Virus record (IMG/VR): IMGVR_UViG_2617270966_000006
Span: 1 to 10,590 of that record
Reading direction: 5' to 3' (one strand)
Length of the DNA stretch: 10,590 bases
Source: a virus
Taxonomy: Duplodnaviria; Heunggongvirae; Uroviricota; Caudoviricetes
The position numbers were made by a program, and so were the translations under genes. Shown one piece after another: positions 531 through 2,585 of the stretch. The notes under the pieces are model-generated. The model worked only from the letters and a program-made list of their open reading frames with translations, was not told the origin of the DNA and did no database searches. Positions within the stretch are counted from its first letter, which is position 1. Every line of letters begins with the position of its first letter.

Positions 531-2585
531 ATGTCAGACTCCAAGTGGAAAATGCTCTCCGCCATGCCCGGAGAGTTTTCAGTCAAGGTTGCCGGTGGCA
601 CGGTGGCATTTATTGAAAGCCCTTTCCGCCCTTCGGGTAATAAAGGGGGGATCACCTTCGCAGACTGCGTGATCCGCTTCAGCACGAAAGAGCCATTATG
701 GGTAATGCCGGTATCCGGTAATCCCAGTGCAGAAATCACCAGTTCAGGCGTGACTGGCATCATTCCAATCACATCTGACGTGGCCGGAACGCTCACGCCC
801 TCCGACTGGAATGCACCGGATAACGCCGGGCCTTCCGGTAGCACGAATGGCAGCAGTTCAGAGCCGGAATATTACTTTGTTGTCATTCTCGCGGGTCAGT
901 CAAATGGCATGGCCTACGGCGAGGGGCTGCCGTTACCGGATTCGTTTGACCGCCCGGACCCACGCATTAAGCAACTGGCACGCCGCAGTACGGTAACGCC
1001 CAACGGTACGTCGTGTACATACAACGACATCATTCCGGCAGACCACTGCCTGCATGATGTTCAGGATATGAGCGGGATAAACCACCCGAAAGCTGATCTG
1101 GCAAAAGGCCAGTACGGGACTGTCGGTCAGGGGTTGCATATTGCCAAAAAACTGCTTCCCTATATCCCACAGAATGCGGGGATACTTCTGGTGCCCTGTT
1201 GTCGTGGCGGGTCAGCATTCACCACTGGAGCCGACGGCTCATTCAGTGAGGCCAGCGGTGCTTCCGCTGATTCTTCACGCTGGGGGGCCGGTAAACCTCT
1301 GTATCAGGACCTGGTAAGCCGCACCAAAGTCGCGCTGGCGAAAAACCCGAAAAACAAACTTCTGGCTGTGGTCTGGATGCAGGGAGAGGCAGACCTTGCC
1401 TCAGGAAGCCAGCAGCATAATAGTTTATTCACGGCCATGGTTCAGCAGTTCAGAACTGACCTGGCTCCGCTTGCTGCGCAGTGCGTGAGTGGAAATGCCA
1501 CCACGGTGCCGTGGATTTGCGGTGATACCACGTATTACTGGAAAAACGCTGGCACCGATAAATATGAGGCAGTATACGGTGGCTACAAAGGCAAGGAAGC
1601 ACAGAAAATTTTCTTTGTACCGTTCCTGACGGATGAGAATGGACAGAGCACGCCAACGAATGCTCCGGCGGAAGACCCGGATATTGTGGCTGTCGGGTAT
1701 TACGGTGCAGCATCCCGAACCCAGGGCAGTTTTGTTTCGACACAGCGTGACAGCCATTTCAGCTCATGGGCACGCAGGGGCGTCATTTCAGACCGTCTGG
1801 CCTCAGCTATTATGCTCCATGCAGGGCGCACGGCTGAACTGATGCGCGGGCAGACCGTGACACCACCGGATGAGAAGCCGTCACCTGATACACCATCAAA
1901 ACCGTCCACGCCACCCGCAGACACCACGACGATGAGTACGCTATTTGCTTACCGGGCATCTGAGTCTGAAGGACGGTTGACACCACAGGGTTGGGCTGCC
2001 GGAGGTGGCAAGGCTCAAATCGTGGATGATGCCGGAGCTAGCGGGGGTAAGGCAATGAAACTGACCAAGGAAACAGGAAGAGCCCCCTGGTACCTTGAGC
2101 ATGATGCTGGTAATGGTGCGGACCTGCTGGGTAAAGGTGGTCTTGTCAGTTGTCGTTTTAAACTCGATGGCGCGCTTACGGCTAATCAGTACGCACTGGC
2201 GCTGTACTGGCCGGTTTCTGCCCTGCCGCAAGGGGTTACTCTGGAAGGAAATGCCGGTCATAACCTGCTGGCATCGTTCTACGTACAGAGCGATGCCACA
2301 GACCTTAACGTGATGTATCACAAAGGAAACACGGCGCAGAACACGAAGCTGGGGTCATTCGGCGCATTTAATAACGAATGGCATACGCTGGGCTTCCGTT
2401 TTGCCGGTAACAACAGTATTGAGGTGACGCCGGTCATTGATGGTAAGGACGGGACACCATTCATGCTGTCGCAGTCTCCGGTCGGCACGTTTACGGCAGA
2501 CAAGTTGCGCGTGACCGATATCACTAAAAATGCGACTTACCCGGTACTGATTGACAGTATCGTGGTGGAAGTGAATAACGCGTAA
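531..2585 (+). CDS. SGNH/SASA-family carbohydrate O-acetylesterase, prophage sialate O-acetylesterase-like (NanS-p-like), 684 aa with three-part architecture
   Basis: Long ORF with coding-like composition. GQSN nucleophile motif (VILAGQSNGMAYGEG) and WMQGEAD block, typical of the sialate O-acetylesterase family; candidate Asp/His in RDSHF. Pro/Thr/Ser-rich linker (PPDEKPSPDTPSKPSTPPADTTT, about 1860-1930) followed by a ~220-aa C-terminal domain, possibly carbohydrate-binding. Start at ATG 531 is the first start after an in-frame stop at 495-497; RBS is weak. Confidence 0.7.
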   Translation: MSDSKWKMLSAMPGEFSVKVAGGTVAFIESPFRPSGNKGGITFADCVIRFSTKEPLWVMPVSGNPSAEITSSGVTGIIPITSDVAGTLTPSDWNAPDNAGPSGSTNGSSSEPEYYFVVILAGQSNGMAYGEGLPLPDSFDRPDPRIKQLARRSTVTPNGTSCTYNDIIPADHCLHDVQDMSGINHPKADLAKGQYGTVGQGLHIAKKLLPYIPQNAGILLVPCCRGGSAFTTGADGSFSEASGASADSSRWGAGKPLYQDLVSRTKVALAKNPKNKLLAVVWMQGEADLASGSQQHNSLFTAMVQQFRTDLAPLAAQCVSGNATTVPWICGDTTYYWKNAGTDKYEAVYGGYKGKEAQKIFFVPFLTDENGQSTPTNAPAEDPDIVAVGYYGAASRTQGSFVSTQRDSHFSSWARRGVISDRLASAIMLHAGRTAELMRGQTVTPPDEKPSPDTPSKPSTPPADTTTMSTLFAYRASESEGRLTPQGWAAGGGKAQIVDDAGASGGKAMKLTKETGRAPWYLEHDAGNGADLLGKGGLVSCRFKLDGALTANQYALALYWPVSALPQGVTLEGNAGHNLLASFYVQSDATDLNVMYHKGNTAQNTKLGSFGAFNNEWHTLGFRFAGNNSIEVTPVIDGKDGTPFMLSQSPVGTFTADKLRVTDITKNATYPVLIDSIVVEVNNA

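Follow-up and report, generated by a model that had tools for sequence, protein, structure and literature searches.

NanS-p esterases are thought to help enterohaemorrhagic Escherichia coli to use the O-acetylated sialic acids of mucin. Their chromosomal counterpart, NanS, relies on Ser19 and His301; Gln18 belongs to its oxyanion hole, and a catalytic Asp, otherwise usual, is missing (PMC9063846). The C-terminal domain of NanS-p has been described as a lectin-like jelly-roll, in which the aromatic residues Y510, Y515, Y540 and F611 of vb_24B_21 were proposed to bind the sugar, and the nanS-p genes of lambdoid phages are accompanied by genes for DUF1378 and DUF826 proteins (PMC10462455). For the same phi24B protein, also named gp84, the DUF1737 domain was reported to bind the capsid, with hexamers on the capsid hexons, and the protein to be processed at its linkers (bioRxiv 10.64898/2026.04.10.717836). 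Here, a related esterase gene is described from a 10,590-bp stretch of viral DNA (IMG/VR record IMGVR_UViG_2617270966_000006), hereafter called the window. From end to end it corresponds to draft contig JNPY01000106.1 (GCA_000703545.1), which starts inside a copy of the insertion sequence IS1 and ends inside the tail-fibre gene stf; both ends are assembly breaks at repeats and not biological boundaries. It is very probable that the gene encodes a NanS-p-type esterase that is native to the right arm of a Mu-like prophage, that this prophage entered a lambdoid prophage by transposition into its gene J, and that the core and the lectin-like domain of the enzyme were exchanged with those of other alleles.

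The gene is a single long open reading frame (ORF), 531-2585 on the plus strand, and its 684-residue product is identical to WP_001284083.1, a widespread allele. Pfam recognised a SASA domain at aa 117-312 (PF03629, with 51.3 bits where the cut-off is 24.8) and, at aa 533-650, DUF6645 (PF20350, 226.5 bits). A search of solved structures matched aa 110-428 to E. coli NanS/YjhS (PDB 3pt5, E 1.8e-117) and aa 469-683 to PDB 6yp6, the molecule name of which is 'NanS-p' (E 7e-98). A sequence-only reading of the window had proposed a NanS-p-like esterase of the SASA/SGNH kind with a C-terminal binding module, and these matches bear out both proposals. For residues 460-684, the lectin-like fold that had been suspected is already solved in a relative of 70-75% identity, in which it is described as a jelly-roll (PMC10462455). 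The same reading had divided the protein into three parts. The core with its GQSN motif (aa 122-125), the Pro/Thr linker and the C-terminal domain of about 216 residues were all recovered, but five parts were counted, as a further disordered linker lies at aa 83-110 (Table 1). PHROG_143 matched the protein with an E value of 1.7e-296, only from aa 71 onward, and no NCBIfam model matched the 684-residue esterase. As for other NanS-p genes, the location is a prophage, here a Mu-like right arm.

In the assembly collection, 4463 indexed blocks contain exactly this protein. In ten out of ten places that were read, one of them in Shigella sonnei 53G, the surrounding genes followed a Mu-like order with ten different host flanks. 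This order runs from the tape measure through the baseplate genes gp44-48, the fibre, Caudo_TAP on the minus strand and usually Gin to the esterase, which is followed by DUF1378, DUF826, an ORF on the minus strand, Com and Mom. The slot is the same in five further cases: two divergent alleles, DLI.5a, a relative in Salmonella and an Sp18-like phage. Of the distinct contexts that were inspected, 14 in number, every one was Mu-like, and their host flanks differed. The window itself, between 308 and 4960, differs from the right arm of the complete Mu-like prophage of E. coli JE86-ST02 at 2 of 4653 positions (99.96% identity). As far as ...CGCCGCGCTATA at 4960, three genomes share an identical sequence, and they part directly beyond it; in other E. 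coli genomes the mom and attR segment is joined to bglJ, flgL, citF, bcsA, terminase, portal or other genes. A shared end with such varied host flanks is the signature of a transposable phage end.

The position of the esterase had been called unusual, which does not hold, since the identical protein occupies the same slot of every Mu-like prophage examined. Rather than having been displaced, the gene opens a conserved accessory cassette made up of the esterase, DUF1378, DUF826 and a variable small ORF. This cassette has the invertible tail-fibre segment (and Gin, if there is one) on one side and com-mom on the other, and would form the right end of a family of Mu-like prophages of E. coli and Shigella. 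The close homologues that carry DUF1737 lie elsewhere. Five of five map to the late region of lambdoid prophages, with Q (or stx) on one side and the holin gene on the other, and are followed by DUF1378 and a DUF826-like gene. That location between Q/stx and the lysis genes is absent for the window esterase, which lies between the Mu G segment/Gin and com-mom, as it does in the 14 related contexts.

The sequence-only reading explained the neighbourhood differently, by a lambdoid late-region nanS-p gene that was moved beside tail-fibre genes through a rearrangement, plausibly mediated by IS1. IS1 is indeed in contact with the region, at 307/308, there are indeed lambdoid tail genes further downstream, and the pair of DUF1378 and DUF826 also occurs with nanS-p in lambdoid phages (PMC10462455). 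However, the stretch 308-4960 is collinear with intact Mu-like prophages, one of which it matches almost completely, the esterase is separated from J by com, mom and a right end of the Mu type, the esterase's N-terminal domain is of the Mu type and not DUF1737, and the same order is found without IS1 in 14 other contexts. A rearrangement of this kind is considered highly improbable. The arm is native to a Mu-like phage, and the adjacency to J, lom and stf comes from Mu-type transposition. The logic of the annotation is thereby corrected: the esterase is a normal member of a Mu-like cassette, and insertion into a resident lambdoid prophage explains its odd neighbourhood.

The same reading had the esterase followed by cargo genes and then tail-fibre genes. 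Small cargo and tail genes do come after it, but the tail genes are from another phage, and the Mu-like right end at 4960 stands between. In a blastn comparison, window 4960-6194 corresponded to positions 9588-10822 of the relative L006, within its gpJ (7866-11264). J, lom and stf are assigned by their sequences to a separate lambdoid prophage that was hit by Mu-like transposition, and the tail genes would stand beside the esterase because a Mu-like prophage transposed into gene J of that lambdoid prophage. J is cut at about codon 575, and its N-terminal half must adjoin the left end of the Mu-like element, which falls outside the window. The junction is spanned by a chimeric ORF that runs from the Mu-like end into J (4825-6651). 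The exact Mu/J junction was not found in scans of genome_contigs, viral_contigs or complete E. coli genomes. Insertions of this kind are frequent: in Shiga toxin-producing E. coli CC119, six of ten Mu-like phages were found inside other mobile elements (PMC10132054). An Sp18-like phage is likewise inserted in the lambdoid gene L of an O157:H7 genome.

Comparison of the full-length homologues divided them by their N-terminus into 24 of the window type and 73 with DUF1737. Collinear alignment of the two classes sets in at 'EPEYY' (aa 111) and does not extend further towards the N-terminus. At the DNA level, homology to a lambdoid nanS-p allele extends over 861-2608, that is, from codon 111 exactly to 23 bp past the stop codon. 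Within the Mu-type class (n = 24), the N-terminal domain is 96-100% identical, with the Sp18-like copy as an outlier at 59%, the core 81-99.7% and the C-terminal domain 81-100%. Alleles of the DUF1737 type interleave with those of the Mu type in the shared part; the core of P0029, for example, is 92.5% identical to that of the window, closer than several Mu-type alleles. The N-terminal domain, on the other hand, follows the phage backbone in 14 of 14 Mu-type and five of five lambdoid cases. The picture suggested by these alignments is of an old Mu-like cassette, the catalytic and lectin parts of which would have been exchanged repeatedly with lambdoid alleles while the N-terminal domain stayed with the backbone. 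The core and the lectin domain would have been swapped with lambdoid nanS-p alleles by recombination, with a homology breakpoint at codon 111. The N-terminal domain would have been kept with the phage backbone, as DUF1737 in lambdoid phages and as an unrelated beta domain of about 80 residues in Mu-like phages.

No match of DUF1737 (PF08410) to the esterase was returned by Pfam even at E<=1, and its N-terminal 82 residues show 14-24% identity to the N-termini of the DUF1737 type. The predicted fold is an all-beta domain of about 80 residues, a small cupin- or jelly-roll-like beta sandwich with a high predicted local distance difference test (pLDDT) score, for which no Pfam, NCBIfam or PHROG family was found. 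A HMMER scan with this domain against 1.84 billion cluster representatives returned four matches, all of them fragments of the same fusion. Two were fragments of the same E. coli protein and two were Salmonella proteins of 26-32% identity, which are cut by contig ends and continue into '...EYYFVIPVAGQSN'; the gene for one of the latter comes after Gin in a prophage of the Mu-like kind. The only additions from a profile search were partial esterases, which came from E. coli, Shigella and Salmonella. The DNA of the domain is present in 31 of 5426 complete E. coli genomes. The domain was thus seen only on esterases of E. coli, Shigella and Salmonella, and every copy with a context that was read lies in a Mu-like prophage. 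A mis-called start, which would leave the N-terminal domain untranslated, was considered and rejected, given the conservation at the protein level as far as Salmonella (26-30% identity), the invariant Trp/Gly/Pro pattern and the high-pLDDT fold.

In the literature searched, no paper linked NanS-p with Mu-like phages and none mentioned DUF6645, and the description of SfMu mentions no esterase. A Mu-type N-terminal domain in place of DUF1737 appears to be undescribed. The esterase sequence itself is abundant in databases under generic annotation; the apparently undescribed point is the backbone-specific swap of the N-terminal domain. The identical protein is on record in thousands of assemblies, which makes the practical surprise moderate.

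A possible though rather doubtful role for the beta domain of about 80 residues is that of a virion-attachment module for Mu-like particles, which have a contractile tail and a gpT capsid; it would be the counterpart of DUF1737 without being related to it. This is suggested by analogy, because the domain tracks the backbone strictly and a disordered linker joins it to the core. If it is true, one and the same esterase-lectin cargo, directed at mucin, serves on two virion architectures that are unrelated, with only the anchoring domain swapped, and display of the esterase on the particle, not mere release at lysis, would be a general selected trait of phages. A second, unrelated N-terminal domain on the same catalytic and lectin parts, in every context that was read within a Mu-like prophage (E. 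coli, Shigella, Salmonella), offers a natural experiment on particle display.

Alternatively, the N-terminal domain may not be bound to the virion at all. It may serve as an extra module for carbohydrate binding or oligomerisation, or be a passive remnant of a fusion, and the esterase may be a fitness factor (a moron) that is released by the lysogen or at lysis. The chances of this are considered about even. A cupin- or jelly-roll-like beta sandwich is a shape common in sugar-binding and dimerisation modules, the gene lies in an accessory region beside com and mom, away from the head and tail genes, and NanS-p is treated in the literature as a growth-advantage factor (PMC10462455; 10.64898/2026.04.10.717836). 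However, the strict link of the domain to the backbone in all Mu-type and lambdoid cases, while the rest of the protein is freely exchanged, is the pattern expected for a phage-specific fit. Moreover, the domain is more conserved than the core among the Mu-type alleles (the Sp18-like copy aside). Backbone tracking could, for its part, also result from linkage alone, since the recombination breakpoint lies downstream of the domain.

With regard to the catalytic mechanism, the alignment to 3pt5 placed Gln123, Ser124 and His409 of the esterase at Gln18, Ser19 and His301 of NanS. The three residues are invariant in an alignment of 14 homologues as well as in 933W L0105 and the Sp18-like paralogue. 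The sequence-only reading had counted on conserved Ser, Asp and His. Ser124, His409 and the oxyanion Gln123 are conserved, whereas an Asp has no part in the NanS mechanism (PMC9063846). In the NanS-type SGNH core, Ser124 would be the nucleophile and His409 the base, and Gln123 would contribute to the oxyanion hole. The Pro/Thr linker would connect this core to the lectin-like jelly-roll domain, which probably keeps the enzyme on sialoglycans; the residues Y554, Y559, Y584 and F654 correspond to Y510, Y515, Y540 and F611 of vb_24B_21 and are all conserved. By analogy with characterised relatives of 65-70% identity, the esterase would be active on 9-O-acetylated sialic acid. It would take O-acetyl groups off Neu5,9Ac2, present in mucin or as the free sugar, and yield sialic acid that the host bacterium can use.

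The enzyme had further been called secreted, which finds no support as far as Sec is concerned: no signal-like hydrophobic or membrane segment was found, and the Kyte-Doolittle hydropathy of 15-residue segments does not exceed 1.08 in the first 65 residues (maximum about 1.0-1.1). Judged by its sequence, 'secreted' can mean only release by lysis or carriage on particles. Since there is no signal peptide, the esterase would leave the cell only with phage-induced lysis.

Several points weigh against the explanation preferred here or limit its reach. The block of the catalytic His reads RDSH in the esterase and RSSH or RASH in NanS and in the NanS-p of Stx phages (PMC10462455). The phi24B result comes from a preprint on the capsid of a podovirus and may not generalise. 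The roles proposed for the enzyme, its expression and its place on the virion are extrapolated, the activity from the relatives of 65-70% identity. In addition, IS1 may have uncoupled the esterase from late transcription of the phage, and a scan for sigma-70-like promoters upstream of the esterase gave no site on the plus strand; overall counts were not above those of shuffled sequences, and the scan is uninformative. As a separate observation on the RDSH block (aa 407-409, window 1749-1757), it is common to the Mu-type alleles and the closest alleles of the DUF1737 type, while NanS, 933W and the Sp18-like protein have RSSH or RASH. It puts an Asp two residues before the catalytic His in a family said to be without a catalytic Asp.

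The presence of IS1 as the left neighbour was noted correctly by the sequence-only reading. Positions 1-307 are its IRL (left inverted repeat) and insA end in reverse orientation, with the IRL at 307 reading leftward and both the terminal inverted repeat and insA present. The gene at 1-252 on the minus strand matches the Pfam families Zn_ribbon_InsA and HTH_Tnp_IS1. The IS1 edge lies 223 bp upstream of the esterase ATG, and insA reads away from the esterase. IS1 would have landed here, or left the end of a deletion, at a later stage than the insertion into J. The exact IS1/Mu junction had no match in the scan of genome_contigs; the contig breaks inside IS1, which is only a left boundary here.

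It may be asked whether the gene is a silent remnant in its source strain, with the rest of the Mu-like prophage removed or uncoupled by IS1, the lambdoid prophage dead through the disruption of J, and neither expression nor release of the esterase. The proximity and outward direction of IS1, the lack of a promoter-like site on the plus strand and the reduction of J to its C-terminal half on this side are consistent with such a state. However, the ORF is identical to the widespread WP_001284083.1, and an intact common allele in an arm with only 2 substitutions in 4653 bp means that any decay is very recent. Furthermore, IS1 is simply where the contig breaks, and the Mu-like prophage may continue directly on its far side. 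A silent remnant is considered unlikely, though not strongly so.

The window is cut at 307 by IS1 and the contig end. The invertible G segment, Gin, the transposase and the structural genes are seen in relatives and fall outside the window. In most relatives gin precedes the esterase; the window (308-377) and JE86-ST02 (L001 11920-12223) are without gin. Similarity to the gin-carrying prophages starts only at 378, which, together with the gin-less JE86-ST02, points to at least two variants of the junction between the G segment and the esterase.

Downstream of the esterase, the DUF1378 protein (60 residues with a hydrophobic N-terminal stretch) is 65% identical to the copy beside lambdoid nanS-p and 88% to the Sp18-like copy, and the DUF826 protein 54% and 72%, respectively. 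The divergence of these two proteins between the phage types (65%/54%) is far above that of the esterase core (88-92% identity). Synteny that is kept in Mu-like and lambdoid phages despite this divergence hints that DUF1378 and DUF826 may be functional partners of the esterase. Defence-system and PHROG searches found no function for DUF1378, DUF826 or the 97-residue ORF that follows them on the minus strand, and the latter had no Pfam, PHROG or PADLOC match. This ORF (3391-3684) is contained in a low-GC patch at 3250-3930 (GC 0.37-0.41). Other Mu-like relatives have different ORFs in its place, of 155 residues in L006, of 135 residues in L023 and of 66 residues on the plus strand in L007, and between DUF826 and com there seems to be a slot for variable cargo.

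Some details of the flanking genes were also recorded. The mom frame is open upstream of its annotated start (window 3900-4832), and gene callers differ between a 299-residue 'Mom' that overlaps com and separate Com (66 residues) and Mom (245 residues) proteins. At 7780-8800, where the AT skew is strong (0.34-0.41), long spurious ORFs occur in several frames on both strands; this stretch coincides with the part of stf that is of low complexity and rich in Ala, Ser and Thr, in which no tandem repeats were detected. The features of the window are collected in Table 1.

Table 1. Features of the 10,590-bp window, with the evidence for each.
Feature	Position	Strand	Evidence or remark
Partial IS1 (IRL end and insA), contig start inside	1..307	-	Reverse complement starts GGTGATGCTGCCAACTTACTG; Mu-like similarity from 308
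Mu-like intergenic DNA upstream of the esterase, 223 bp	308..530	+	Identical to JE86-ST02 L001 12001-12223
Esterase N-terminal domain, aa 1-82	531..776	+	Predicted all-beta, not DUF1737
Linker 1, aa 83-110, Ser/Gly/Pro/Thr-rich, predicted disordered	777..860	+	pLDDT <50 for aa 82-115; variable among aligned homologues
NanS-type SGNH (SASA) core, aa 111-430, with Gln123, Ser124, His409	861..1820	+	3pt5 and Pfam SASA matches; catalytic residues invariant
Linker 2, aa 431-468, Pro/Ser/Thr-rich, TPPDEKPSPDTPSKPSTPPADTTT	1821..1934	+	Length differs among homologues
Lectin-like jelly-roll C-terminal domain, aa 469-684 (DUF6645), about 216 aa, plus stop codon	1935..2585	+	6yp6 and PF20350 matches
DUF1378 small hydrophobic protein	2751..2933	+	PF07125 E 5e-35; constant nanS-p neighbour
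DUF826 protein	2969..3223	+	PF05696 E 1.2e-14; constant nanS-p neighbour
97-aa ORF, no family, low-GC variable slot	3391..3684	-	Different ORFs there in relatives
com (Mu translational activator of mom)	3941..4141	+	PF10122 Zn_ribbon_Com E 7.5e-13; annotated Com in L001 of JE86-ST02
mom (DNA modification)	4095..4832	+	PF25680 Mom E 7.8e-78; annotated Mom in relatives
Right end (attR) of the Mu-like prophage, 128 bp, ...CGCCGCGCTATA	4833..4960	+	Identical in three genomes to 4960, then divergent flanks
Lambdoid tail-tip gene J, C-terminal half only, beginning at about codon 575 of 1132	4960..6651	+	Ig_J, Ig_J_second, Phage_Tail_Tip, Ig_GpJ_C
lom (Ail/Lom outer-membrane protein), lambdoid prophage	6721..7320	+	PF06316 E 2e-120
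Lambdoid side tail fibre gene stf, off contig end	7385..10590	+	phage_tail_N, Gp34_trimer, Collar; frame open to end

Among the known systems, chromosomal NanS (YjhS, PDB 3pt5) shares a catalytic domain that is homologous throughout, with the equivalents of Gln18, Ser19 and His301 kept (PMC9063846). In contrast to the window esterase, it is a single domain of about 326 residues without the N-terminal beta domain or the C-terminal lectin-like domain, and it is not borne by a phage.

The NanS-p proteins of lambdoid and Stx phages, such as 933W L0105 and vb_24B_21 of phi24B, come closer. They have the same NanS-type SGNH core and lectin-like DUF6645 domain, the same catalytic and aromatic sugar-site residues and the same DUF1378/DUF826 partners, and no signal peptide either. 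Identity to 933W L0105 is 65% over aa 94-683 (70% in the core and 68% in the C-terminal domain), and it reaches 87-92% with non-Stx lambdoid alleles. The differences lie in the catalytic-His block, which is RDSH in the window esterase and RASH or RSSH in these proteins (PMC10462455), and in the N-terminus, where the lambdoid proteins have DUF1737 (PF08410) and the window esterase has the unrelated all-beta domain of about 80 residues and a longer linker. The genomic setting differs as well, as the window esterase belongs to a Mu-like transposable prophage of the myovirus type, between G segment/Gin and com-mom, whereas lambdoid NanS-p lies between Q/stx and the holin gene.

The 679-residue esterase of the Sp18-like Mu phages of E. 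coli O157:H7 (WP_010917876.1) has both the architecture and the slot of the window esterase (Gin, esterase, DUF1378, DUF826, ORF on the minus strand, Com, Mom). The two proteins are 59% identical in the N-terminal domain, only 69% in the core and 72% in the C-terminal domain. The Sp18-like core is closer to the 933W type, with the RASH block and shared residues. A Mu-type N-terminal domain on a 933W-like core shows that the catalytic part was exchanged independently.

T4 Hoc and the DUF1737 decoration of phi24B by gp84, as modules displayed on the virion and directed at mucus, are comparable by analogy only, in that a glycan-directed part is combined with a flexible linker and a small module at the N-terminus (10.64898/2026.04.10.717836). 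DUF1737 was described as one helix and three strands in the same study, whereas the window esterase's N-terminal domain is predicted to be all-beta. Apart from the DUF1737 domain and the lambdoid late-region location, the features of the NanS-p family are all found in the window esterase, and it is predicted from its sequence to work like NanS-p.

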